Made by a program: the position numbers and the translations under genes
Shown here: piece by piece, positions 33,956 to 53,744 of the stretch
How positions within the stretch are numbered: the stretch's first letter is position 1
Layout: each line of letters starts with the position of its first letter
Notes under the pieces: model-generated
Seen by the model: the letters and a program-made list of their open reading frames with translations, nothing else
What the model was told of the DNA's origin: nothing
The model's database searches: none
From: an uncultured Phycisphaerales bacterium
GTDB taxonomy: Bacteria; Planctomycetota; Phycisphaerae; Tepidisphaerales; Tepidisphaeraceae
DNA length: 64,000 bases
Assembly (NCBI GenBank): GCA_963758525.1
Contig: CAVWVQ010000003.1
Coordinates: 768,001 to 832,000 of the forward strand
Reading direction: 5' to 3'

Positions 33956-34037
33956 GAGTCCTTCCTGAATCGCAGTTGGTTCAATGCGTCGCTGTCGCAG
34001 TTGCCGCAGGCCGCAGTTTAGGCGTTATAATGCGCGG

Positions 34038-34829
34038 ATGCACGCGAGCCCCTTTCCAGGAATGGACCCATACCTTCAATCGCGCTGGCCGGACGTGCAT
34101 GCGAAGTTGATTGCCTGCATCGGCGAGGCACTGCAGCCTCTGCTCCCCGGAGATTTGCGGGCGCGTTCAGAGGAAAGAATCCTTCTTGAGTCGTTTGAGG
34201 GACAGACCCCAAGACGATATCGCGGCGATGTCGCGATCGTCGAGGGGAGATCTGCTCCCGCGTCACGCATCGTGGCGGGCGCCGCGACGATTGAGCCAAT
34301 CATCATCGAGTTCTCTGACGAGCCGCGCGTGGACCGCCTCGTCCAGATCATCGACATCGCCAATGGAGGGCGCGTGGTGACGGCAATCGAGGTTCTCAGT
34401 CCATGGAATAAAGCCGCCGGTCGGCTGAACGACGGCTACCTGCGCGAACTGGAAGATTATGCCCGAGCCGGTGTCAGCGTCGTCGAGATCGACCTGCTGC
34501 GAGGTTCGCGCTCGCGGATGATCGTGACGGATGACGACCTGCCTGCCGATCGACGCTCGGAGTATCTGCTAGCCTTGCGGCGTGGATGGGCGGGCCATCG
34601 ATGGGAAGTGTATCCCATCCCGCTCAGGCAGCGGCTGCCAGCCGTCCCCATCCCGTTGCGGGAGACAGGGCCGGACGTGCTCCTGGATTTGCAGCCTTTG
34701 ATCGAGCGCGTGTATATCGCGGGAGGACACGACGATATTGATTACGACAAACCAATTGATCTGCCTCTCGACGACGCCGACGCCCAGTGGGCACGAGAGT
34801 TGGTTCGAGGTCGGAACGATCGATGTTGA
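34038..34829 (+). CDS. DUF4058 family protein
   Basis: SPFPGMDPYL, VVTAIEVLSPWNK, VEIDLLRG, IDYDKP. Confidence 0.88.
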   Translation: MHASPFPGMDPYLQSRWPDVHAKLIACIGEALQPLLPGDLRARSEERILLESFEGQTPRRYRGDVAIVEGRSAPASRIVAGAATIEPIIIEFSDEPRVDRLVQIIDIANGGRVVTAIEVLSPWNKAAGRLNDGYLRELEDYARAGVSVVEIDLLRGSRSRMIVTDDDLPADRRSEYLLALRRGWAGHRWEVYPIPLRQRLPAVPIPLRETGPDVLLDLQPLIERVYIAGGHDDIDYDKPIDLPLDDADAQWARELVRGRNDRC

Positions 34830-34880
34830 TGGCGAGGGCCAATAGTCTTTTTCATCGGCGATTCCATCAATACGCTGGGA

Positions 34881-35884
34881 TCACCTCCGAAACTCCCCAA
34901 TCAGCGCCGCCAGCGTCGACTTGACGTCATCCAGCGTCCCCACCGCCAGCAGAATGCGATATTGATACTCACCAAATACACCCTTGGTATCCCGGACCCG
35001 GTACACGCAGTTCCACTTCACAACCTGCTGAGCTTTGAATTTCCACCGGCCGTAGCGAGGACCAACTTCGCCCCGCGGCGCGTCCGAGCCGGGGAAAAAG
35101 TGCCCATCGCAAATCGGCCGTCCGCCGTCGAGAAGACGATGGGCAGAGTTTGCTCTCCCGGACCGTCGTCCAGTGAATCGAGTTCGTTTTTACTCGCGTC
35201 ATACGTCCAGAACTTCTCAAACTCAGGCGGCATGTATCCCGTCAACGCCTCCATTACACAGGAGGTATCGCGCTCGCCTGCCGGAATCGTCACCGTCACG
35301 CGATAATCAATCGCGTGCGGCAGACCAGGCATGCCAATCTGCACGCGCTTGGCCAGCAGATGATCCGAGAGAAGGATCTTGTTCCGCGCGGGATGCCCGC
35401 CCGACGTTTCCCCCGGCTTCAGCCAGAACGCGGGCCGCGAAAGCGTGGTCAGAATATTCCTCTCGGCATGCAATTGCAGAAGTTTGCTGGAGGAAGTTGG
35501 TCCAGCCCCATCATCCCGCGCGCCCGCTTCGGTGGGATTGAGCGTCTCGGATTGAATCGGGGTAATCCCGGCATCGGCGTTCCAAGCGGTCTGCAGTTGC
35601 CGGCCATGGTCGGCAGAGTTGATAAACTCCTGTCCGCCCCACGTCAGAGAATGAATCGCGCCCCCCACTCGCGAGGTGGTCGTAATCACGATTTCCGATT
35701 CGCCAACCTTGGCACGAATCACGGAGTCGCCGCTGACCTCTTTGTCGCGGTCGCCTTCGGCGGCACCGCCGGCAAGGATGGCGCGAAAGACAATAGCAAC
35801 AAAACCCATCGCCCGAATCCGCAACCACCACACGCATCGCTGCTTCGTTCCGCGTCGCCCGGTCGATATGTCTTTGCACGACAA
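34881..35884 (-). CDS. Conserved secreted hypothetical protein, frameshift near 35060 (start uncertain)
   Basis: GQEFINSADHGRQLQ, NPTEAG; shifted frame continues VVKWNCVYRVR…EFRR* to 34881. Confidence 0.65.
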
Positions 35885-36120
35885 TGGTTATCTCCTGGTC
35901 ATCGGACCGTGGGCTTACACCCCGAGCCATTGTTGTTTTTTTGTCCGCATTGACGGCTTTCGGATTACGCCGCGACTTTCCGGGTCGCCGGGCGTCATGC
36001 AAACGCAATTCTAGAACGTGCCCACAAACAGAGCGGAGCCGCGGATGTACATCCGCGGCTTCTTGTCCCACGGACGCGGCTGATCCGATCGAGCTTTAAA
36101 AAATAGTTACCCGGCTCGCG

Positions 36121-36462
36121 CTATTGGTGGCCGACGCCTTGATCGACCGACACAATCGCCGATCGGGTCGCGCCGGTGAGCGAGCACTTGGGGTCCAGCA
36201 CGCCGGTTTGGAAATACTTGATCGCCGCGGCCTTGCATTCCGGACACACTTTGTTGCCCGCGGAGCACATAACGACCGGCTCGTTGGGGTCGACCGAAGA
36301 CAGGTAGACCGTGTAGTTACCGGTGTTGCCGCCGCTGACAACGATCGCACGCTGCGGCGAAGCCATCGCCTGCGCGGTCGTGGGACCGGAACTCTGACAG
36401 CTTGCAAGAATCAGCATCGCCAATGCGGCGGCGGCGACGAGACCGGTGCGTTGCATGAACAT
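36121..36462 (-). CDS. Small lipoprotein with CxxC
   Basis: RBS AAAGGAGAG, lipobox LASC, VCPECK. Confidence 0.65.
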   Translation of the reverse strand: MFMQRTGLVAAAALAMLILASCQSSGPTTAQAMASPQRAIVVSGGNTGNYTVYLSSVDPNEPVVMCSAGNKVCPECKAAAIKYFQTGVLDPKCSLTGATRSAIVSVDQGVGHQ

Positions 36463-36840
36463 GATGAACTCTCCTTTGGAAATTCCGTGTTCGTCGTTGC
36501 GACGCCGCAGACGACGATCATCCTTCACCGTTCCAAAGCGGCATGGATTCTATTTGGAGCAATTATCGCAGCGGCAGTTGAAACGACTTCATCGCGCCGC
36601 CAACGACCTCACTTTACCTTCAATCCCCGACAGCCCCGAAATATTTCGTGAATACCGCACATCAGTTACACCATGCCCGCCAATTCGCGAGCGATCATTC
36701 TCGTCGCTGCATGTACTTTCCCCTCAATCTCTCCGAAAATCGTAGGCCGCTGGCGCACTCCAGAGACGTTCCACTAAATGACCTTACGCGAACACGCGCT
36801 GCCAATCTCCGAGGATCCGCGCGAACCCGTGAAGCGGGAA

Positions 36841-36923
36841 CACGAATCTGCACGAATTCGCACGAATAAACGCGGAGGAAATCTGCTTCGTGAAGATTCG
36901 TGCGAATTCGTGTCGATTCGTGT
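36841..36923. repeat. Palindromic short-period element (CACGAAT / ATTCGTG arms)
   Basis: cacgaatctgcacgaattcgcacgaat … attcgtgcgaattcgtgtcgattcgtg. Confidence 0.8.
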
Positions 36924-37049
36924 TCTGCATTTCCCGGTCACTCCAGACCGGGCGGGATCGCGCACAGCCATTTAGTTTAGGCTGGCAGCGTCAGACGCAA
37001 GCCGAACCCGCACGGAGTTTTCAGACAGAGCGTGGCCCCATGACAAGAG

Positions 37050-38043
37050 TCATTCCCTCGGCCGCAGGTAGTTCCGCCGAATGCGCGGCCGGTACGTGGC
37101 CGTCGCGCCTTCACCCGTCGCCAGCTTCGGGAACACCTGCAGATGCACGACCACTTTTTCGTTCCACACGAGCGAAGCCGCAGCGAGATCACTCTCTTCC
37201 ATCCGCCATTCCTTGCCGTCGCCCGGCGGGCTGAAGCTCTCCCATTTCGCGGCGATCAGACGATCCAGCGTCGAGCGGATGACCTGCCCCTCATCCGACT
37301 CCGGCAAGGCCGGATCGACCGGAGCTTCGAGCAGATCGATGGCATAACTGTCTACCAGCGATTCCCAAAAATACTTGAGCGTCGAATGCCGATCGAACAG
37401 ATCGAGCCCCTGGAACGTTCCCGCGTGAAATACTGCCACCCCAACTGCTTCGGCGGGCAATTGCAGACTGACGCGGAATGCACGCAGATCGACATCTCGC
37501 TTCGCGTAGGCATCGCTCAATGCGCTCGTCGGACTGCTGGCGCCGGATGCGTGCAATGACTCCTGCACTTCGTTCCAGACCGCTCTCTGGTCGGCGTCGT
37601 GTCCTCCCCCCGATTTGAGATTCTCATGCACACGCGCGAGCTTCGCGGACCGCACGCGATGACTCGCGGACTTGCCGCTGGAGAAACGCCTGGCTGACAT
37701 GATGCCATCGTCCCTGCTCGACACAACTGACCGGAATCTTCAGTGTCGAGCTGGCGGGAACCAGTACATCGGTGTTCAAGATGCGATTCTGCTTCGCTCC
37801 AACGAGTTCCTGACCATCCATCAGGAACACCCTCACGTCGAGCTTGTTCTCGACTTGCAGCTCCGGCACGCTTCCGCTCTGGCTGATCTCCGTGACGACC
37901 ACGCAGCTCAGCGTCTCCGGTCGCAATAGTTCGTACGGCGGCCGCTCATGCGAGCGGCCCAGGATCGGAATGAACTTGAGCTTCTGCCCCTGGCTGCGGT
38001 CAGGAGAGACTGTCTTGGCCCGGTTGGAAATTGCTTTTGGCAT
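37050..38043 (-). CDS. ARPP-1 (DUF6569)-like protein, frameshift near 37685
   Basis: GSVPELQVEN…LMDGQELVGAKQNRILN…IPVSCVEQGRW; DQRAVWNEV; RBS AAAAGGAG before ATG 38043. Confidence 0.8.
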
Positions 38044-38084
38044 CGTGCTCCTTTTTGTTGCCCCCCCTTCAATAGCAGACGCTC

Positions 38085-38102
38085 CTGACAACAGTGTGTC
38101 AG
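38085..38102. promoter_or_regulatory. Candidate operator palindrome CTGACA-N6-TGTCAG
   Basis: Perfect 6-bp inverted half-sites between the divergent ARPP-1 and WYL genes. Confidence 0.55.
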
Positions 38103-38223
38103 TGAGCCGGCAAGATTAATTTGGCGAATCCATTCTGGCGGTTACGATCTCGCTCACCATTCGCTGTCGTGCATGAATTGATCAGTTTATTCCTGCCCGG
38201 TTTCTGATCGCGGGGTAACAGAT

Positions 38224-39213
38224 ATGGCTGCGAATTACTCCCGGATTCATCGGCTGCTTAAAATTCTCACGCTCATTCAGGGCTCCAAAGGCTGGACGCC
38301 AAAACACCTGGCGCACGAATGCAAGGCCGCTGAGCGGACGATTTACCGCGACATGAAAATGCTCGGCGCCGCGGGCATCCCCTGCTTCTATGACGATGAT
38401 GCCAAGTGCTATGGCGTCCAGCGCGATTTCTTCATGCCGCCCGTGCAGTTGACGCTCGACGAATCCCTCGCTCTGGCGGCCCTGGCCGAGCATGTCGGCG
38501 GGCAGGAGCAGGTTCCATTCACCAAAGCCGCTGCCCGTGCAATCAGCAAGATTCGCGGCCAGCTCCCTGCGCCCATTCGCCGGGAGCTTGAGCAGATCGA
38601 GGACCACGTCGCCATCAAGCTCGCGGCAACGCACCCGCCCGAGGCCTCTGCCGACGTCTACGAAAAGATACGGTCGGCTCTTTCGCAAAAGCTGGCGCTG
38701 CGATGCCAGTACGAATCCGTTTCAAGCGGCGCGAAGAAAAACGGCCAGGCTTTCCTCCTCAAACCCTACACGCTCTTCTTCAATCAGCGGGCGTGGTACG
38801 TCGCCGGCCATCACAGCAAGCACGATGACATTCGCTGCCTGAAATTGAACCGATTCAGCCGCGTCCAGCCAACGGATCACCCCTACTCGATTCCCAAGTC
38901 CTACTCACTGGACAAACACCTCGGCAACGCCTGGCGGATGATTCGCGGCGACAGCACGTTCAAAGTGGAACTGCACTTCGATCCAGGGTTTGCCGAGACG
39001 ATCGCCGATACGCACTGGCATGCGACTCAGGATGTGATCTGGAACGATGATGAGTCAATCACGTTCCGATGCAAAGTGGACGGGCTGGAGGAGATTATCT
39101 GGTGGGTATTGAGCATGGGCCCGCACTGCACGGTGAAGAAGCCAATGGAACTGATCGAGAAGGTGAAGACGCTGACGGCGGCAATGGCCGCCAAATATTC
39201 CGCGCCCGCCTGA
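38224..39213 (+). CDS. HTH-WYL-WCX transcriptional regulator (YafY/PafC-like)
   Basis: wHTH ERTIYRDM, WYVAGH…RCLKLNR, C-terminal WWVLSMGPHCTVKKP. Confidence 0.93.
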   Translation: MAANYSRIHRLLKILTLIQGSKGWTPKHLAHECKAAERTIYRDMKMLGAAGIPCFYDDDAKCYGVQRDFFMPPVQLTLDESLALAALAEHVGGQEQVPFTKAAARAISKIRGQLPAPIRRELEQIEDHVAIKLAATHPPEASADVYEKIRSALSQKLALRCQYESVSSGAKKNGQAFLLKPYTLFFNQRAWYVAGHHSKHDDIRCLKLNRFSRVQPTDHPYSIPKSYSLDKHLGNAWRMIRGDSTFKVELHFDPGFAETIADTHWHATQDVIWNDDESITFRCKVDGLEEIIWWVLSMGPHCTVKKPMELIEKVKTLTAAMAAKYSAPA

Positions 39214-39704: not shown

Positions 39705-39777
39705 AGCCACCTATCAGAGTCGAACTGATAACCCCCGCTTTACAAAAGCGGTGCTCTGCCAATTGAGCTAAGGTGGC
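39705..39777 (-). tRNA. tRNA-Thr(TGT)
   Basis: GCCACCTTAGCTCAATTGGCAGAGCACCGCTTTTGTAAAGCGGGGGTTATCAGTTCGACTCTGATAGGTGGCT; all four stems pair, anticodon TGT, CCA not encoded. Confidence 0.95.
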
Positions 39778-40898: not shown

Positions 40899-41054
40899 GA
40901 GGAGCCAGAAGTCAGGAGCAAGGAGCCAGAAGGGAAGAGGAAAATGCAAATCGGCCGTCGTCTCTTCGCTTCTGACTCCTGACTGAGGAGCCAGAAGTCA
41001 GGAGCAAGGAGCCAGAAGGGAAGAGGAAAATGCAAATCGGCCGTCGTCTCTTCG

Positions 41055-41070
<16 letters not shown>
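40899..41070. repeat. 86-bp perfect tandem duplication
   Basis: gaggagccagaagtcaggagc…tctgactcctgact at 40899-40984 and 40985-41070. Confidence 0.9.
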
Positions 41071-41540
<470 letters not shown>

Positions 41541-45776: not shown

Positions 45777-46967
45777 ATGCAGCGTGATCGACGAGCCAGC
45801 CGGCCCCTCTTTTTGGCCTTGGCGGCTCTCATTTCCCTGGGCCTGTGCGGCTACGCACTCAAGATCAACCATGCGCGGGCCGTGGCGCTTCACCAGGCCG
45901 AGACGCATATTCCCGCGTCAGAATCTACTCCCGCGGTGGCCTTTACGGCGCCATCGCCGCAGACGCAGTCCGTGCTCCCGCTGCTGGCCGCGGTGACTGC
46001 CACGCCACCCGCGCCGGCGCCGCCCGTCGATCCCCCCGTTGCGCCCCTCATCACCAGCACTCCGCCGATCAATGCAACGGCCGTCGCACAGGCTGAGCCG
46101 ACCACGCGCCCCGCGGCGCTGCTGGCAACCGATCTGACTGCGACCCAGCGCCAGCCACCTCTCACAGTGGCGTTGCCGGCGCCCGCAACAGCGCCCGTGG
46201 CCTCCGGCGATGTCATCAACGACTCGAAGCAAAAGAAGGAAACCGGCGATCTCGTCGCGGCACGCGAGGAATTGAACAACGCGCTGCTGTCGGGCCATCT
46301 GTCCGAAGCCGACGCCGACGCGGTTCGCCATAACATCGCCCAGATCAACCAGACGCTGGTCTTCTCCTCCGAGCGCACCCTCAACGATCCCTGGGCAGCA
46401 GCCTATCCCGTGCAAAGCGGCGAACGCCTCTCCACGATCGCCGGCAAAAATAGTGTCACCTGGCAGCTCCTCTCCCGCATCAATCACGTCGATCCCAAGC
46501 GCCTGCGCTCCGGCTCCACGATCAAAATCGTCAAGGGACCCTTCTTCGCAGTGGTTTCCAAGAGCAAGTTTCGGATGGACATCTTCTTCGGCGCGCCCGG
46601 GGGGCCGGGGTCGATGTACGTCACATCCTTCGGCGTAGGCCTGGGAAAAAATGATTCGACTCCAACCGGCACCTGGCAGGTCCAATCCGGCAACAAGATC
46701 CTGCACCCCCGATACTACAGCCCAAACAATGCCGGCGTGATCGACGCCGACGATCCGAAGAATCCCCTCGGCGGATATTGGATCGGCCTGGAAGGTCTCG
46801 ACGGACAGGCCGTCGATCAACACTCCTACGGAATCCACGGCACCATCGACCCCGACTCCATCGGCAAGCAAGCCTCCCTCGGCTGCATCCGCATGGGACA
46901 CGACGACATCGAACTCGCCTTCGAGCTCCTGGTCGAAGTGAAAAGCAAGATTGTTGTCGTTCAGTAA
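45777..46967 (+). CDS. LysM-containing L,D-transpeptidase (YkuD family)
   Basis: TM anchor, Pro/Ala linker, LysM YPVQSGERLSTIA, catalytic YGIHGT…SLGCIRM. Confidence 0.9.
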   Translation: MQRDRRASRPLFLALAALISLGLCGYALKINHARAVALHQAETHIPASESTPAVAFTAPSPQTQSVLPLLAAVTATPPAPAPPVDPPVAPLITSTPPINATAVAQAEPTTRPAALLATDLTATQRQPPLTVALPAPATAPVASGDVINDSKQKKETGDLVAAREELNNALLSGHLSEADADAVRHNIAQINQTLVFSSERTLNDPWAAAYPVQSGERLSTIAGKNSVTWQLLSRINHVDPKRLRSGSTIKIVKGPFFAVVSKSKFRMDIFFGAPGGPGSMYVTSFGVGLGKNDSTPTGTWQVQSGNKILHPRYYSPNNAGVIDADDPKNPLGGYWIGLEGLDGQAVDQHSYGIHGTIDPDSIGKQASLGCIRMGHDDIELAFELLVEVKSKIVVVQ

Positions 46968-47204
46968 GATGGGTGTGGGCCGGCTGAGGTACTGGTGTTC
47001 ACACCCGACGAGTGGGATCTCTCGGAGGAATCAGACACCGAATGAATCGCGGTCGGAACGCCGTGATCGGGTGAAGACTGCTCGTTCGTCACTCACTGGC
47101 AGCAGGCTCGCGCTGAGCCAGCTTCTCGTTCAGCGTCCGCTGGGCGACGGCTGAATATCCTGTCAGCTTATTGCGAAGATGCCGGCCGGTGCTGTGGAAC
47201 GACC
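46494..47204 (+). repeat. Left copy of long imperfect direct repeat
   Basis: 3' half of the L,D-transpeptidase gene, intergenic DNA and 3' end of the YtxH-like gene; recurs at 51869-52684. Confidence 0.95.
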
Positions 47205-47211
47205 AATGGAA

Positions 47212-48291
47212 TCAAACGGCCACGGGCAATAGCGCTCGGGGCCTGGATTTGGGCTCGTTCTCGGCGAGGGCGAGGAGTGCTCCTGCTTTCTCGTCTGCTT
47301 CGAGTCGATCACCTGCATACTCGCACTGGCCGGCAACGCGGGTCAGGGCGTCCACAAGCGAAAAGATCGTGAATCGACCTTGTCGCTCGGCGAGTAAAAG
47401 GGCCTGCTTCGCAAGATCACGGGGGATGCCGTGTTTGAATAGCACCTTGGCTACGTCTTCAGCGTTGTCGCCAAGACGAGTCTCGAATGCCTTCTTCATT
47501 ACTCGGGCAAAACCGTCGCGTCGCTCATCTCGTCTTTCGACAAGCTGCGCGATGATGCGGCGGATTTCGCGGAGTGAATCCGAAACATTCGCTGTGTGTT
47601 TGCGAGAAAAGTCGACGACTTCCACCGCATCCCACACAATGTGATTCTGACACACGGCCTGGAACCAGAATGTCTGAACACCGACGGAGCGGCGACCGAC
47701 CTCCGAATTCCAAAGAAAGAATCCTGGCGCGAATGCCTCGCCTTCGATTTCGGCCCAGCCGGTCGGGTCGATGAGGAAAACGAACATGTCCTGCTCACCG
47801 CAGTACAAGCCCGTTGCCCCGTTCATCCCGGTTTGCGGCGGCTGGAATTCCGTCGCAAATTCTTTCACGATGGCCAGCAAATCCAGGTTATGGAGCCGGG
47901 TGTAGCTCGCGCCATGAATGGAGCGAACGGCCCGGTCCAGCGTGAGCACCTGCATCGGCTTGCCACCCTGGGGAAGCGTCTCGGCCAGCACGCGGCCCGC
48001 GGTATCGGCTGACACCTTGTTGACTGTGTCTTTGCTGACGCCCGCGAGCTTGCACAACTGCGAAAAACTCCAGTCATTGAGGCGATAGCTTTCGCCGTCG
48101 CCTCCGAGCTTGAGGTCAAGCCTGCTGCTCATCGGCGCCGTGAGTATCTCGGCCGGAGAATGCCAACGGTCGGTCGAGCGTTCCTTGAAATCCTGGCAGT
48201 GACGCCAGAGATCGTCGAGGCTCGCGAACCGTTCGTCGGCAGCCCGCCGGAATAATTCGCGGCTGGCTTGAGTCAGATTCTGCTTCTGCAT
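47212..48291 (-). CDS. DUF932-like protein (phage/plasmid-type)
   Basis: ELFRRAADERFASL, LNDWSFSQLC, GFFLWNSEVG…FQAVCQNHIVW; start taken at MQKQNL. Confidence 0.75.
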   Translation of the reverse strand: MQKQNLTQASRELFRRAADERFASLDDLWRHCQDFKERSTDRWHSPAEILTAPMSSRLDLKLGGDGESYRLNDWSFSQLCKLAGVSKDTVNKVSADTAGRVLAETLPQGGKPMQVLTLDRAVRSIHGASYTRLHNLDLLAIVKEFATEFQPPQTGMNGATGLYCGEQDMFVFLIDPTGWAEIEGEAFAPGFFLWNSEVGRRSVGVQTFWFQAVCQNHIVWDAVEVVDFSRKHTANVSDSLREIRRIIAQLVERRDERRDGFARVMKKAFETRLGDNAEDVAKVLFKHGIPRDLAKQALLLAERQGRFTIFSLVDALTRVAGQCEYAGDRLEADEKAGALLALAENEPKSRPRALLPVAV

Positions 48292-48532
48292 GGGAAGCTC
48301 CTTTCGGAAAGAGGAATGGGAAAAACAAGAAATGAAACCTTTTGCCAACTGCACCACCGGTCTCTCTGCCCGCGCGACGGCAATCACGCCGACAGAGAAT
48401 CGGTGAGCGTTCTTCTTCCCGAAATGGAGATGTGAATGAGCAGCCTAAAACGGCGTTCTGAATTGAGTTCTGACACGACCGGCGGCGCTAGTCAACGTCG
48501 AAGAATCGAAGCGGGCTCGATATCGGCAAGCG

Positions 48533-48558
48533 GCGGTTCAAATCCCCTTGGCTCCACT
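48533..48558 (+). other. tRNA 3'-end fragment (Ala-like), possible att-site scar
   Basis: GGTTCAAATCCCCTTGGCTCCACT resembles a T-loop plus acceptor 3' strand; no 5' half upstream. Confidence 0.5.
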
Positions 48559-48743
48559 AAATTCCCCGAAAACGGCTGATAGCGCCCCAATCAGTCATAT
48601 CTCACGATCTGGTAATTACTTATTACAATTTGCGGGCAGTTCAATCATATGGCGGGCTCTGCGAAAAACGTAGACTTGCGCTTGGCAGGGAGCGGGATTT
48701 GAACTCTCAAAGATTCCCTTGTAGCAATACATAGCGAATTTCG

Positions 48744-49544
48744 ATGATCTTGTGGAACCTTATAAGGCGAGAACCGAGAAATCGTATGGAAGCAGCCGAC
48801 GCAAGGAATCCAAACGTTCCGCCTTCATCACTGACTCGTTCAGACTTGATCAGTCGATTGTTTCCAGGCGTCGCGATGGTCGAGGATCACTCCGCGCCGG
48901 GTCGTGATCGGGTTGTCGGGAGGAATATTCGCGGCACCGCGTTCGTTGCTGATGAACGCGGCTATTTTTTCACTGCAAAGCACGTAACCCGAGGCCTTGA
49001 CCCGCGCAAGATGGAATTGCGAACAGTGTACAGCCGGCATAATCCGGATGTGTACGCAATGAACGCGTGTCGATCGATTGAAGCCATATATCCTCATCCT
49101 TACTTGGATGTCGCAGTTATCGCTGTCGGTGCGTCACATACGGTTGGGCGCGCTCAACTACCATTCCGCGCCGGCGGGCTCCGCCTCGGCGACGATGTCC
49201 TTCTTGTCGGATACGCGCATGGAACCGAGATTGTGTTTGCTGACGACATTCTTGGTGACGCGAGCCCCAAATCATTGTCCCCAGTCGCGCTTGCCGGGAT
49301 GATTTGTGCCCGTATTCCGGATGACGGGCGAAGGGTGCGGCTTCTCGCCTATGATTGTACGACTTTTCCGGGTTGCAGCGGCGGTCCAATCGTCTCGTCA
49401 GCGCTCGGTGGCGCTGTCGTTGGACTGCATCTAAGAGGGCTCACTAATCGGATCGGTTACGCTGTTCCCATCGAGGATTGCAATATGTTTGTCGAGGCGG
49501 TCGCAGAGGTGCATGAGGCGGGTCGTTCTACTGCACGTCGTTGA
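48744..49544 (+). CDS. Trypsin-like serine protease (start uncertain)
   Basis: Catalytic triad motifs FTAKHV, LDVAV, GCSGGP; no signal peptide. Confidence 0.85.
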   Translation: MILWNLIRREPRNRMEAADARNPNVPPSSLTRSDLISRLFPGVAMVEDHSAPGRDRVVGRNIRGTAFVADERGYFFTAKHVTRGLDPRKMELRTVYSRHNPDVYAMNACRSIEAIYPHPYLDVAVIAVGASHTVGRAQLPFRAGGLRLGDDVLLVGYAHGTEIVFADDILGDASPKSLSPVALAGMICARIPDDGRRVRLLAYDCTTFPGCSGGPIVSSALGGAVVGLHLRGLTNRIGYAVPIEDCNMFVEAVAEVHEAGRSTARR

Positions 49545-49568
49545 TAATCTTGATTTGAAGGAATCATC

Positions 49569-50105
49569 ATGGCCAAAGAATTGACCACCGAAGAATTGTC
49601 CGCGCAACTCGTTCAGTTCGTTGCCAAGGGTACCGCCGTTGCCGCGCGTCTGGCCTCTGAACGAAAATTGCCAATCAAATATGACCATGTGCAGCAAGCA
49701 TTGGAGGAAGTGCTCGCTGTGCGGCGATCAGAGCACTTGCTGTCCGAAGATTTGAGCGAAGACCGGATGCTGGAATTGCTGCGTGACTATAAGTTCGAAG
49801 GGCTGTTTCCGGTTGTACTTGAAGAGATTACTTTGGATGAGGCCGTTATTCCCCCCGGTGCCCTCCGACGACTGGAGGAGCGGACTGTCAAGGCGTCTGG
49901 CGAAGTGTGGAGAGTGCATAAGAATGACGCTGATCCATTTCCGTCTAATCCGCATGCGCACAATCTCGATTCGGGTCTAAAGCTGCACCTCGGCACGGGT
50001 GAGCTTTTCCTGAAGCGGCAGCTTGCTGGCAAAATCCAGAGTAAGGATCTGCTTGCGATACGTGCACAACTTACAAAGTTCACGCTGCCGGCCCTGGCGG
50101 TGTGA
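49569..50105 (+). CDS. Hypothetical protein with His-rich C-terminal motif
   Basis: RBS GAAGGA; WRVHKNDADPFPSNPHAH. Confidence 0.75.
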   Translation: MAKELTTEELSAQLVQFVAKGTAVAARLASERKLPIKYDHVQQALEEVLAVRRSEHLLSEDLSEDRMLELLRDYKFEGLFPVVLEEITLDEAVIPPGALRRLEERTVKASGEVWRVHKNDADPFPSNPHAHNLDSGLKLHLGTGELFLKRQLAGKIQSKDLLAIRAQLTKFTLPALAV

Positions 50106-50402
50106 ATCATTCTTCAAGGGACCGTCAGATTAGCAAAGGACTGGCAGTTGTAGGATTTTGGAAATTACCCCTCCCTCTGGCTCCGGCTCTGAAGCAGCGG
50201 TGTAAACACCTTCACCACCACCATCGGTCGGGCCGCTCCCGATTTTAGCCGCTTTGCGGCATGAGTCGCTGTATACCTCGACCGACGGCGATAGCGACGA
50301 AGCAGAGGAGTTAGGCCAGGGGCTACCATTAGCCCATTTCGACGCAACCATTCCGTAGCAGTAGAATAAGGCGGGATAACCTGTCCTTTCAGGAGGTTAG
50401 CT

Positions 50403-51422
50403 ATGTCCACGAACGCGGCCTCTTCGCTTGCGCATCTCGCACCACAACCGTTTTACGAAGCCGCTATTGCAGCCATTCAGCGGGCGAAAGAGGCCGGGGA
50501 ACATCGCCTTTACCTCGCGAAGCTCCACGGAGTGACTGAGAAACGACCGGAACCCAAGCCGATGGCACCGTGGGTAATAGGGCTCATGCGGGCGGTCGAA
50601 TCGTGTATCGACGCAAATTGGGAAGTTCACATTATCGAGAGGGTAGAAGATCGCGACCGTCTGGAATTCCTTTTGAAGGGCATCAAGCGATTCGACAAGG
50701 CCGAAGATTATTCGGTGAAGGCCATTCTAGGCGCTGAGGGACTACCCTTTCTGAACGTGCTCATTGCTGGACACGGTCAGAGCTTTCTTGCCCTAGACGA
50801 TCCACGTTATCGCCTCGCAAGGATGGGGCTGGAACTCCCCGCAGGCGATATTGCCAAAGTCATCGAAGCGTACTGGAAGGACCTCTGGGAGCGATGCCCA
50901 TACTGGGTTCGCAAGTCGTCGGGGCTCTACCATGGCGCAGGAGGCGTGGACGCGCTTCGCGACGTACTTGAAAGGTCTATTCGTAATCCTGCATTTGTCG
51001 CAATGTGGTTTGGTGACGATTCCACTCCGGAGACAGTCGCGTACATGGCGCGATTGTTCCATGACCACATCCAACCTGCGATCGAGCGCGCCGGTTACAA
51101 GGCGTCGAGGGTTGACTTGGTGCCACACAACGAGTTCATCATGGAGAGAGTCTTGCGCATGATTCGCGAGGCGCCTTTCGTTGTTGCCGACTTCACAGGC
51201 AATCGGAACGGCGTCTATTTCGAAGCAGGCTTCGCGCGTGCAATCAATATTCCCGTCATCCACCTGTGTCGCGACACGCATTTTGCACTCGCCCATTTCG
51301 ACATCAAGCAAATCAATACCACCGTTTGGAACAGTCCTGTGCAAATCGACTCGGAGTTGTCGAACCGCATCGTCCAATCAGTCGGAATCGGTCCGTATGC
51401 ACCGGTCGCATCGAAGCCATGA
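50403..51422 (+). CDS. Two-domain protein with C-terminal nucleoside 2-deoxyribosyltransferase/TIR-like domain
   Basis: RBS AGGAGG; AFVAMWF…PAIERAGY…RVD…FVVADFTGNRNGVYFEAGFA…PVI…FDI. Confidence 0.8.
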   Translation: MSTNAASSLAHLAPQPFYEAAIAAIQRAKEAGEHRLYLAKLHGVTEKRPEPKPMAPWVIGLMRAVESCIDANWEVHIIERVEDRDRLEFLLKGIKRFDKAEDYSVKAILGAEGLPFLNVLIAGHGQSFLALDDPRYRLARMGLELPAGDIAKVIEAYWKDLWERCPYWVRKSSGLYHGAGGVDALRDVLERSIRNPAFVAMWFGDDSTPETVAYMARLFHDHIQPAIERAGYKASRVDLVPHNEFIMERVLRMIREAPFVVADFTGNRNGVYFEAGFARAINIPVIHLCRDTHFALAHFDIKQINTTVWNSPVQIDSELSNRIVQSVGIGPYAPVASKP

Positions 51423-51466
51423 GGGGATACGGGCCGGTCGGACAGAACGAAAGGTGCTCCATCTCT

Positions 51467-51720
51467 TCATGTCCCATGATCGCCCTTCAGCAAACGGGTG
51501 AGTTCGTCGTAGTCCAATACACCTAACTTGTGACGATAAGTATCGACTAGCATGTGCGCTCCATGGGTCAAGTACGAGCTTATCACGATCAGACCCCGTG
51601 CGGCCCTACGGATGTCCGTATCCATGAGCAATTGCTTCATGATGGGCCTTCCGACCTTGTGATCAAGCGCGTGGCGCTTGCACTGAACGATCACCTTTTC
51701 AACTCCCAGCGCATGCTCAA
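51467..51720 (-). pseudogene. Mrr-like restriction endonuclease, C-terminal fragment
   Basis: VIVQCKRH…KVGRP…GLIVISSYLT…LDYDEL; the N-terminal half is missing and repeats start at 51724. Confidence 0.75.
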
Positions 51721-51723
51721 TGA

Positions 51724-51860
51724 GGGAAGTCATACGGGGGGAAGTCATACGGGGACGCAGCTAGTTCTGGGGAAGTCATACGGGGACGCAGCTAGTTCTG
51801 GAAGTTATAAGGGGGAAGCTAGTGCGTGCGGATCAACTAGCTGCGTCCCCGTTTCACTTC
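51724..51860. repeat. Nested tandem plus inverted repeat (GGGGACGCAGCTAGTT type)
   Basis: GAAGTCATACGGGG x3, GAAGTCATACGGGGACGCAGCTAGTTCTGG x2, opposed by AACTAGCTGCGTCCCCGTTTCACTTC. Confidence 0.9.
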
Positions 51861-51868
51861 CCCAAGCG

Positions 51869-52684
51869 CCCAAGCGCCTGCGCTCCGGCTCCACGATCAA
51901 AATCGTCAAGGGACCCTTCTTCGCAGTGGTTTCCAAGAGCAAGTTTCGGATGGACATCTTCTTCGGCGCGCCCGGGGGGCCGGGGTCGATGTACGTCACA
52001 TCCTTCGGCGTAGGCCTGGGAAAAAATGATTCGACTCCAACCGGCACCTGGCAGGTCCAGTCCGGCAACAAGATCCTGCACCCCCGATACTACAGCCCAA
52101 ACAATGCCGGCGTGATCGACGCCGACGATCCGAAGAATCCCCTCGGCGGATATTGGATCGGCCTGGAAGGTCTCGACGGACAGGCCGTCGATCAACACTC
52201 CTACGGAATCCACGGCACCATCGACCCCGACTCCATCGGCAAGCAAGCCTCCCTCGGCTGCATCCGCATGGGACACGACGACATCGAACTCGCCTTCGAG
52301 CTCCTGGTCGAAGTGAAAAGCAAGATTGTTTGTCGTTCAGTGAGATGGATGCGCGGATCGATCATTTCCCCCTCGTTTCGTGGAATGAGAGATTCCGAGC
52401 GGCAGCAACGGGTCTGGGATGTGCTCCATGCGGAATATGGACCGCAATCCTTTCATCGCGTGGGAACGCTTCTGGTGTTCACACCCGACGAGTGGGATCT
52501 CTCGGACGACTCAGACATCGAATGAATCGCGGTCGGAACGCCGTGATCGCGTGAAGACCGCTCGGTCGTCACTCACTGGCAGCAGGCTCGCGCTGAGCCA
52601 GCTTCTCGTTCAGCGTCCGCTGGGCGACGGCTGAATATCCTGTCAGCTTATTGCGAAGATGCCGGCCGGTGCTGTGGAACGACC
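51869..52684 (+). repeat. Right copy of long direct repeat, including a start-less L,D-transpeptidase catalytic-domain fragment
   Basis: Near-identical to 46494-47204 in the coding parts; 105 bp longer, with several substitutions in the middle. Confidence 0.95.
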
Positions 52685-53234
52685 GGCTGGTCTGATTCAA
52701 GATGCGTTGACCCTGCTGCGTGAGCCGGGCGCGACGGGTTCGGCCCTGGTCCGGATCCAGAAGCCACATCAATCCAACGCCGGCGGCGCAGAATCCCACC
52801 GCGGTCAGCGCGACCGGCAGCACGTGGCTGGAGGGCTCTTCTCCGCGCAACGCCGACGCGGCATGGCGTCCGCGATGCCGCAATTCATCAATGGCAGACT
52901 GGGCATCACTGATAACTCGCGAAACAACATCCCGCGCATCGGCGGCCACGCCCGCCGCATCGGCCAGATGCGCCTTGGCTGCATCCTGGAGCGGAGCCGC
53001 CGCGTCCTTCACGGCGCCGGCAGCAGCATCGTGGGCCCGTTCGGCTTGGTCACGCGCCACCGCAGCCAGCGTCTCAATCTGCCCCTTGAGCTTATCGATC
53101 GCTTCGCCCGCCAGCCCGCTCAGTCGCTGGCGACGTTCCTGGCCGGCCTCAGGATCCAGCAGGTAAAGTGCCAGCGCGCCGCCCGCGGCGCCAACCAGGG
53201 CTGTCGTGAAACTCATCGTCTTGGACGTATTCAT
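52569..53234 (-). CDS. YtxH-like membrane protein
   Basis: Two GxxLxxLLDPxxGxxRR motifs; RBS AAGGAGAGG. Confidence 0.75.
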   Translation of the reverse strand: MNTSKTMSFTTALVGAAGGALALYLLDPEAGQERRQRLSGLAGEAIDKLKGQIETLAAVARDQAERAHDAAAGAVKDAAAPLQDAAKAHLADAAGVAADARDVVSRVISDAQSAIDELRHRGRHAASALRGEEPSSHVLPVALTAVGFCAAGVGLMWLLDPDQGRTRRARLTQQGQRILNQTSRSFHSTGRHLRNKLTGYSAVAQRTLNEKLAQREPAASE

Positions 53235-53744
53235 GGCACCTCTCCTTGGGTTTCCGCGGCGCGTTCCGCCGTCGGCGGTCAGTTGAATCCCGGATCGTAA
53301 GCCTTTGGTCTCGTCCTGCGAACCCCTAATTTTCGATCTTCCTGCGGTCCCGCACAACTACAGGCCTGCAGCCCGTGCGCCACGACATCCGTTCCCGGTC
53401 CGATAACTGCTCATGCTTCAAGGTCCGGTCGGCCGAAGATACATCCGTCGGGAAAGCCAATCAGCAAAGGAGATCGCCATGACGCACGGGCGTAAAATGT
53501 TGCTTGAAACGCTGGCCGGTCACATCGCGCTGCTCGAGTCAGTCAACCCCAGGAAAGCCAGCTCACCGGTTGCGAGGAAGACTCGCCGGTACATCAAGGC
53601 ATGTCTGAAACGCCAGGACGGGTTCGCGCGTCCTCTGGCAGCGTGAGGCCAAGGCGTGCAAGAGTATCCACGGCCGCGGACCAAATCTTAGTGCTCGCGC
53701 ACAAATAACTGGATCAGCTTCGAAACCATAAGTGATGCAATTAT

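Follow-up and report, generated by a model that had tools for sequence, protein, structure and literature searches.

The stretch analyzed here, referred to as the window, comprises 64,000 nucleotides (C3:768001-832000) of an uncultured Phycisphaerales genome, which is assembled into six contigs with a total of 6.47 Mb; the contig in question, C3, is 5.04 Mb long. Within the window, a gene for an L,D-transpeptidase (ldt) and a convergent ytxH-like gene are separated by a block of cargo genes, and a piece of the junction between the two host genes is found on each side of this block. A sequence-only reading had described an imperfect duplication of 0.7-0.8 kb bracketing a 4.66-kb cargo, and had proposed that this arrangement is the product of single-crossover integration of a circle carrying a homology arm from a related strain.

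The duplicated junction and its two copies

We find that the direct duplication is present as described, based on a repeat search, pairwise alignments and a self-BLAST of the genome. The left copy (711 nt) and the right copy (816 nt) are collinear, lie in the same orientation and directly abut the cargo on either side, with 4,664 nt separating them (Table 1). Each copy comprises the final 157 of the 396 ldt codons, the spacer, and the last ~38 codons of the ytxH-like gene, and the order along the window is intact ldt, spacer A, ytxH 3' stub, cargo, ldt 3' fragment, spacer B and intact ytxH-like gene. This is the order that had been claimed, and it is borne out both by the alignments and by the matches of open reading frames (ORFs) and domains. 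Each host gene exists in one intact and one dead copy, with ldt intact on the left and the ytxH-like gene intact on the right; the earlier statement that both genes were spared is correct. The dead copy of ldt had been called its 3' half; such a fragment is indeed present, but it amounts to only ~40% of the gene and retains the whole YkuD domain. A 0.7-kb repeat at 99% identity cannot be the result of chance. The same repeat search revealed no inverted repeats of 40 nt or longer in the region from 44 to 55 kb. Other nearby direct-repeat pairs exist in the genome, and the one that we inspected (C3:4292693/4298348) resembles a pair of paralogous genes rather than a cassette.

Table 1. Features of the duplicated junction and of the cargo, with positions in the window
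Feature	Position	Strand	Detail
Intact LysM-YkuD L,D-transpeptidase gene ldt, 396 aa	45777..46967	+	Pfam YkuD E 1.3e-10 (residues 259-387), LysM E 7.7e-6
Left junction copy	46494..47204		ldt codons 240-396, spacer A, ytxH 3' stub; 711 nt
Short small-gene remnant in spacer A, last ~17 codons and stop	46992..47045	+	tblastn of right-copy ORF: 70% identity, residues 39-58
Dead ytxH-like 3' stub, last ~38 codons	47089..47204	-	116/116 identical to intact gene
Cargo, 4,664 bp	47205..51868		GC 0.555 versus 0.60-0.62 in flanks
DUF932 (phage/plasmid-like) gene	47212..48387	-	Pfam DUF932 E 2.1e-6; phrog_1362 E 6.4e-17
Trypsin-like serine protease, 266 aa	48744..49544	+	Trypsin_2 E 2.9e-12; PADLOC protease part of RT-Protease_XI E 2.1e-7
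178-aa protein, unnamed family of defence islands, without family match	49569..50105	+	43 metagenome relatives
Conserved structured element, ~150 nt, RNA or single-stranded DNA	50161..50312	-	Sharply bounded; covariation
339-aa protein, C-terminal nucleoside 2-deoxyribosyltransferase / Rcl-DNPH1-like domain	50403..51422	+	Nuc_deoxyrib_tr E 4.6e-7; phrog_16139 E 4.2e-23
5'-truncated Mrr-type restriction endonuclease gene (fragment)	51467..51748	-	Mrr_cat E 1.2e-9, profile positions 42-115 of 115
Cluster of repetitive extragenic palindromic (REP) units, two direct and one inverted, ~30 nt each, abutting right joint	51727..51865		Repeat matches across C3
Tandem doubled 8-nt word CCAAGCGC	51862..51877		At joint of cargo and right copy; once in left copy
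Right junction copy	51869..52684		ldt 3' fragment, spacer B, ytxH 3' end; 816 nt
Dead ldt 3' fragment	51869..52343	+	Silent substitution at 52060, stop TAA->TGA, +1 T at 52329
Longer small-gene remnant in spacer B, 58 codons	52349..52525	+	Paralog 54% aa identity, E 6e-15
Intact ytxH-like gene	52569..53357	-	Pfam YtxH E 7.4e-12

The differences between the two copies are distributed unevenly, with nearly identical coding parts and divergent spacers, as had been noted before. The copies are identical at 459 of 460 positions over 46494-46953 and at 207 of 213 positions over 46992-47204, and the ytxH coding part is identical throughout (116/116). The right spacer is ~105 nt longer, with alignment gaps at 52352-52437 and 52445-52467, and six substitutions fall among the 97 alignable spacer positions to the right of this indel. 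The sole substitution in the first 460 nt, A at 46685 versus G at 52060, affects codon 303 (CAA/CAG) and is silent; similarly, the original ldt stop codon reads TAA in the left copy and TGA in the right one, again a silent difference. An extra T at 52329 causes a +1 frameshift in the last codons of the right ldt fragment. The substitutions are clustered, with 6 among 97 spacer positions versus a single one among 587 coding positions (Fisher p = 4.4e-5); of all 11 substitutions, a stretch of 120 nt contains 10 (binomial 1.9e-7).

There is a dead copy of every segment, since the ldt fragment is dead on the right and the ytxH stub and a small-gene remnant are dead on the left. Because of this, uniform decay after a duplication in place would not give the clustered pattern, and a comparison of two alleles fits the copies better than decay in place. 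The allele-like difference in turn supports a homology arm derived from a related strain. That both ldt substitutions are silent is as expected of functional alleles from separate lineages, although with two sites only this is weak evidence.

The intervals that had been described simply as spacers are present and do differ, but they are not empty, as spacer B contains an ORF with a paralog of ~100-108 aa elsewhere in the genome (match at C3:3570237-3570392). Only the C-terminal half of the paralog is aligned, and thus the spacer B ORF is itself probably the remnant of an older insertion. The ~105-nt deletion in spacer A removed all of the small gene except its last 17 codons, which makes spacer A a shortened derivative of spacer B. 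The complete paralog immediately follows a 150-aa ORF (C3:3569686-3570428), and neither has a Pfam match; the two look like a two-gene module, of which the window keeps the remnant only. We also observed that the +1 frameshift joins the dead ldt fragment, with its whole YkuD domain (E 1.6e-10), in frame to the small-gene remnant, and that the resulting putative chimeric ORF of 323 codons (51554-52525, +) is open upstream through the REP cluster and the antisense Mrr sequence.

Genes and a structured element of the cargo

Judged by its sequence, the cargo is foreign DNA, and it resembles a remnant of some conjugative or integrative element with genes of defence islands on it. At its left end, the stop codon of the DUF932 gene lies 7 nt from the joint. 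The protease and its 178-aa partner, together with the Rcl/DNPH1-like nucleotide-cleaving effector (the 339-aa protein), are predicted to serve in defence against phages or in a comparable conflict. The C-terminal domain of the effector also matches the PADLOC TIR effector model (E 2.8e-8). Its structural model is confident only at residues ~195-335 and poor at residues 1-194 (mean predicted local distance difference test score 50.2); the best Foldseek match is DNPH1/Rcl (4fyh_A, E 2.7e-3, probability 0.98), and the domain also resembles MilB nucleotide N-glycosidases. PDB sequence searches with three cargo proteins gave nothing beyond a weak Rcl match (phmmer E 0.058). PADLOC matched no complete described defence system and gave domain-level matches only, to the RT-Protease_XI protease part and the TIR effector, and a promoter and terminator scan found no signal exceeding that of shuffled sequences.

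Relatives of the cargo genes are found in other settings. DUF932 homologs with 61-72% aa identity occur in five other genomes of the class, where their neighbours are TrwC relaxase, ParA-like genes (in two), integrase, and restriction-modification and ubiquitin-like defence genes. The 178-aa protein was found in one of 400 other genomes sampled from the phylum, and its relatives otherwise come from metagenome contigs. Around 20 loci of this family we scanned 55 neighbouring proteins, two of which come from another locus of this genome, and found Shedu SduA, HipA, HEPN/Toprim, KAP NTPase, type I restriction-modification, Mrr, EVE-HNH, SIR2, HamA and Zeta-toxin proteins. The C-terminal domain of the effector occurs in 22 loci, joined to other N-termini.

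We considered whether the three genes form a conserved defence module and found no support for this, since the protease lies directly upstream of the 178-aa relative in only 1 of 43 loci (at 55% and 46% identity) and the other two genes are absent from all 22 effector-domain loci. This genome also encodes a paralog of the effector (C3:2634000-2641000; 58% identity over 139 aa), adjoining an intact ARPP-1 gene and a gene for a 768-aa AAA_16 ATPase, and these may constitute a three-gene conflict system of their own.

Closer relatives of the cargo core were seen in other datasets. Besides the cargo protease, its 90% cluster contains three proteins, which come from three different sources (contigs of 1,188, 3,955 and 2,025 nt), and that of the effector has two further members, for both of which the longest contig is 3,955 nt; these two probably represent one frameshifted copy that shares its contig with one of the proteases. 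The exact 178-aa protein occurs on two contigs. In the one public run that was found (share 0.07; there was no RNA run), contigs of 150-477 nt are 95-98.5% identical to 48189-50397. Among the contigs listed for this run, the long ones with at least 94% identity are confined to the same interval, a gap over the flanks that is uninformative about the host. These findings, on short contigs that carry no context, fit a cargo core that is mobile beyond this species. A blastn search of the cargo against plasmids and phages gave no match.

The most unusual thing at the locus is a structured element of ~150 nt between the 178-aa and effector genes. It is present as a single copy in this genome, within the cargo, and 16 of the 141 genomes of the family carry it (a tally that includes this genome and one unpublished genome), with up to 10 copies per genome. 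Across 28 distinct sequences, 90% of the cells in the alignment are paired, and 14 of 40 pairs have changed on both sides, a value that none of 500 shuffles reached; the abundance of G-U pairs favours one strand. Within one genus, the element is located 17-32 nt after paralogous ORFs of ~204 aa that are membrane-anchored, in tandem units ~1.2 kb apart; outside that genus, it sits among defence genes. Rfam searches of the region from 44 to 55 kb returned chance-level miRNA rows only, and none for this element. An integron-like reading was tried and rejected, as there is no integrase domain among 52 ORFs around four arrays and the attC box consensus is not conserved in the alignment.

Origin of the arrangement

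We consider Campbell-type integration of a circle by a single crossover to be the best reading of the locus and probably the right one, though with considerable room for doubt. One reciprocal RecA-type crossover between the chromosomal junction and a circle composed of the cargo and its own copy of the junction would produce the arrangement, and it is the simplest single event that would give the observed order. The circle could have been a fragment unable to replicate, comparable to an F-prime or to specialised transducing genomes, cut by illegitimate recombination from a larger element that lay next to the junction in a related strain, with one of the joints at the REP cluster. An illegitimate excision of this kind is suggested because the truncated Mrr gene and the REP cluster are found at one joint. 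The crossover would probably have occurred inside the 460-nt ldt block, leaving the host's own spacer B beside the intact ytxH-like gene, but this is a guess. Perfect-identity runs of 268, 191 and 119 nt remain between the copies, and for this reason host recombination is predicted either to delete the cargo, with restoration of a single junction, or to amplify it.

The absence of element-encoded recombination genes, which the sequence-only reading had noted for the inside of the block, extends to its surroundings. No integrase, transposase or resolvase Pfam domain was found in 44 ORFs (13 ORFs, 10 small cargo ORFs and 21 ORFs of the region from 31 to 64 kb), and the cargo ends are not inverted repeats of each other (score 6.5 versus a shuffle mean of 6.9). 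A transposon or insertion sequence was rejected as an explanation, since no transposase was found in the ORFs scanned, there are no terminal inverted repeats and the 8-nt word is doubled at one joint only. The proposal of a single-crossover circle with an arm from a related strain is partly supported overall: the topology is exactly that expected, and the uneven differences between the copies fit.

Several points weigh against this proposal. The 60 relatives that we searched are at most ~70-73% identical in DNA, and among them is no close strain with an empty site; the only public run that we found carries a relative of the cargo and not this genome. How the circle acquired a 0.7-0.8-kb piece of the junction is unexplained, and both the spacer allele of the host and the position of the crossover are guesses. 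Flanks that are 99.8-100% identical beside a spacer divergence of ~6% need an extra assumption, either that the two strains differed mainly by a short imported patch or that conversion occurred later. The tandem 8-nt word CCAAGCGC at the right joint is unlike the product of simple microhomology joining. Finally, the sample or the assembly is not perfectly clonal, as contig C6 (8.2 kb) is 99.87% identical to C3:52517-60748 (8 mismatches and 3 gaps). This contig could represent a residual haplotype, a genuine second copy or a remnant of the assembly.

That the duplication arose at the junction itself seems unlikely to us. In this scenario, a templated or captured insert would have served to repair a break or a stalled fork, the copies would at first have been identical, and the spacer of one would later have been altered by a deletion and a short patch, either imported or error-prone. 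The routes that we considered are staggered cuts 0.7 kb apart, a template switch, and homology-facilitated illegitimate recombination via the sister chromosome. When illegitimate recombination has its anchor on one side, recipient DNA is normally lost or replaced, and a duplication of 0.7 kb of it would not be expected. In addition, two or more later events, namely the 105-nt deletion and the 10 substitutions within 120 nt, would have to have been confined to one segment while the other dead segments stayed clean, and the silence of both ldt substitutions would be left unexplained. Such an origin does account well for flanking blocks that are 99.8-100% identical, for a tandem 8-nt word of the sort that slippage or template switching can leave, and for a REP cluster positioned exactly at the right joint, and homology-facilitated illegitimate recombination is described as an established route for foreign DNA (PMC3240628).

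It is also quite improbable that the block is a decayed site-specific island which supplied substitute 3' gene ends, as e14 does at icd, by means of a recombinase that acted in trans or has been lost, with the integrase later deleted. No recombinase gene was found among the ORFs scanned from 31 to 64 kb. There is no sign of a shared target, since none of the five DUF932 loci in other genomes adjoins an ldt or ytxH homolog. No second partial copy of ldt was seen among the 60 relatives searched. The repeat, at 711-816 nt, spans two genes and a spacer with coding parts 99.8-100% identical to those of the host, unlike an attP that has travelled for long. Partial duplications of gene ends are nevertheless presented as the rule for elements that integrate at gene ends, such as e14 between icd and icdC (PMC13626634), and the integrase-less H47 island, with extensive imperfect direct repeats, is reported still to excise and integrate (PMC3191183, PMC5426353). 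That the cargo ends in a truncated gene also indicates that material has been lost.

There is, moreover, little chance that the assembly has misled us, with a single junction in the chromosome and the cargo plus a second junction threaded in from a separate circle or a second strain. The copies do differ as alleles would, and the duplication of C3:52517-60748 in contig C6 at 99.87% identity indicates more than one haplotype or unpolished reads. However, both novel joints, of the ytxH stub with the cargo and of the REP cluster with the middle of ldt, are possible only in the tandem form or in a circle, and a 5.4-kb circle with no recognisable replication gene would presumably not persist. No other contig holds the cargo, the junction or an empty site. 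Within the 5.04-Mb contig, repeats of 1.5-2.0 kb at 100% identity and one of 5.5 kb at 99.2% identity are resolved; thus, reads longer than the 6.2-kb structure were evidently used.

REP sequences have long been associated with rearrangement joints. The ~30-nt units at the right joint match ~8 other places on C3, and they flank, in inverted orientation, a frameshifted IS200-like gene at C3:470942-471881, which is in three frame pieces and has a weak Y1_Tnp match (E 2.4e-4). Because they recur on C3 and flank an IS200-like gene, we take these units to be REP-type repeats of this host lineage. Inverted repeats around a Y1_Tnp gene are the layout of a REP-associated tyrosine transposase (RAYT) with its REPs. 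At the left end of the cargo, a REP-like half-site (47207-47224) is marginal, as 5% of random windows score equally.

Known systems and the wider locus

Non-replicating circles with a cloned homology arm, such as suicide vectors, integrate by a single crossover in what is known as Campbell-type insertion-duplication, and F-prime plasmids and specialised transducing genomes likewise integrate through the host DNA that they carry. As in such integrations, the homology segment here is directly duplicated around the insert, the cut genes are each present as one intact and one truncated copy, and no recombinase encoded by the element was found; Campbell-type products are reversible by host recombination, which is predicted for this locus. 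Unlike laboratory integrations, this would be a natural event in which the cargo carries no vector, marker or replication functions, and the arm is internal to two convergent genes, such that neither gene is disrupted.

Two enterobacterial elements offer partial parallels. In Escherichia coli K-12, e14 is reported to sit between icd and the C-terminal pseudogene icdC and to recombine both copies upon its loss (PMC13626634), and our cassette is likewise flanked by an intact gene and a pseudogene copy of its C-terminal part. However, e14 has its own site-specific system and excises upon SOS induction, whereas here no recombinase was found and the repeat is far longer, covers two genes and is nearly identical to the host sequence. 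The H47 island of E. coli, which encodes microcin H47, is described as lacking a recombinase gene, as having extensive imperfect direct repeats and as excising and integrating with host functions (PMC3191183, PMC5426353); like our cassette it is small, free of a recombinase and bordered by imperfect direct repeats on both sides. In those accounts, recombination of H47 is independent of RecA and occurs in a few short segments of identity, and the repeats are att-like and spread among strains. In contrast, the repeats in our window duplicate part of two host genes, and mobility of the cassette is a prediction.

This type of event is well known from genetics, and the locus adds an instance rather than a new principle. 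It would illustrate cleanly, and in nature, how genes can be gained through homologous recombination alone, with no dedicated mobile-element enzyme. The copies that form the scar extend over 0.7-0.8 kb and hardly differ outside the spacer, and the scar is either young or kept uniform; the insertion spares both host genes, and the scar would be young enough for reversal or amplification to be measurable. If such scars are common, then part of the flow of defence genes between strains is free of integrases, and tools that seek recombinases would miss it. It is very doubtful, on the other hand, that the cassette works as a shuttle that moves defence genes with no recombinase of its own. In such a shuttle, illegitimate recombination linked to REP/RAYT would release circles with accessory genes and a piece of the adjoining core genome, and the circles would enter related strains, integrate through that piece by RecA only and be able to leave again. 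If it were, captured homology arms on the kilobase scale would be a general vehicle for defence islands in Planctomycetota.

We also examined the host locus in relatives, which carry the DUF1559/N_methyl domains that are a hallmark of planctomycetes. The adjacency of hyp237 and ldt is kept in all 10 of the relatives' loci, with MgsA beside them in 8, and the ytxH-like gene and the major facilitator superfamily (MFS) gene are found downstream of ldt in none of the 10. In both congeners, ldt is followed by AsmA/DUF748-like, transglutaminase-like and nuoG genes, and in this genome nuoG is 1.7 Mb away. Since the downstream order of the relatives is different, the junction is also an older break in synteny, from 46968 onward. 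A metagenome scan with Ldt returned 230 pattern matches, none of which is a relative, and exact look-ups place Ldt and MgsA in single-member 90% clusters, seen on this genome's contig only.

The only tRNA gene in the window, tRNA-Thr at 39705-39777, is remote from the junction, where there is none. Beside this tRNA gene is a second accessory patch (33984-39213), which holds a DUF4058 gene, an ARPP-1 gene that is split into two pieces (37050-37724 and 37624-38091) and a WYL/WCX regulator. Farther to the right, at 40899-41536, an array of 69 copies of the 7-nt unit GCTCCTG follows an 86-nt unit that is present twice.

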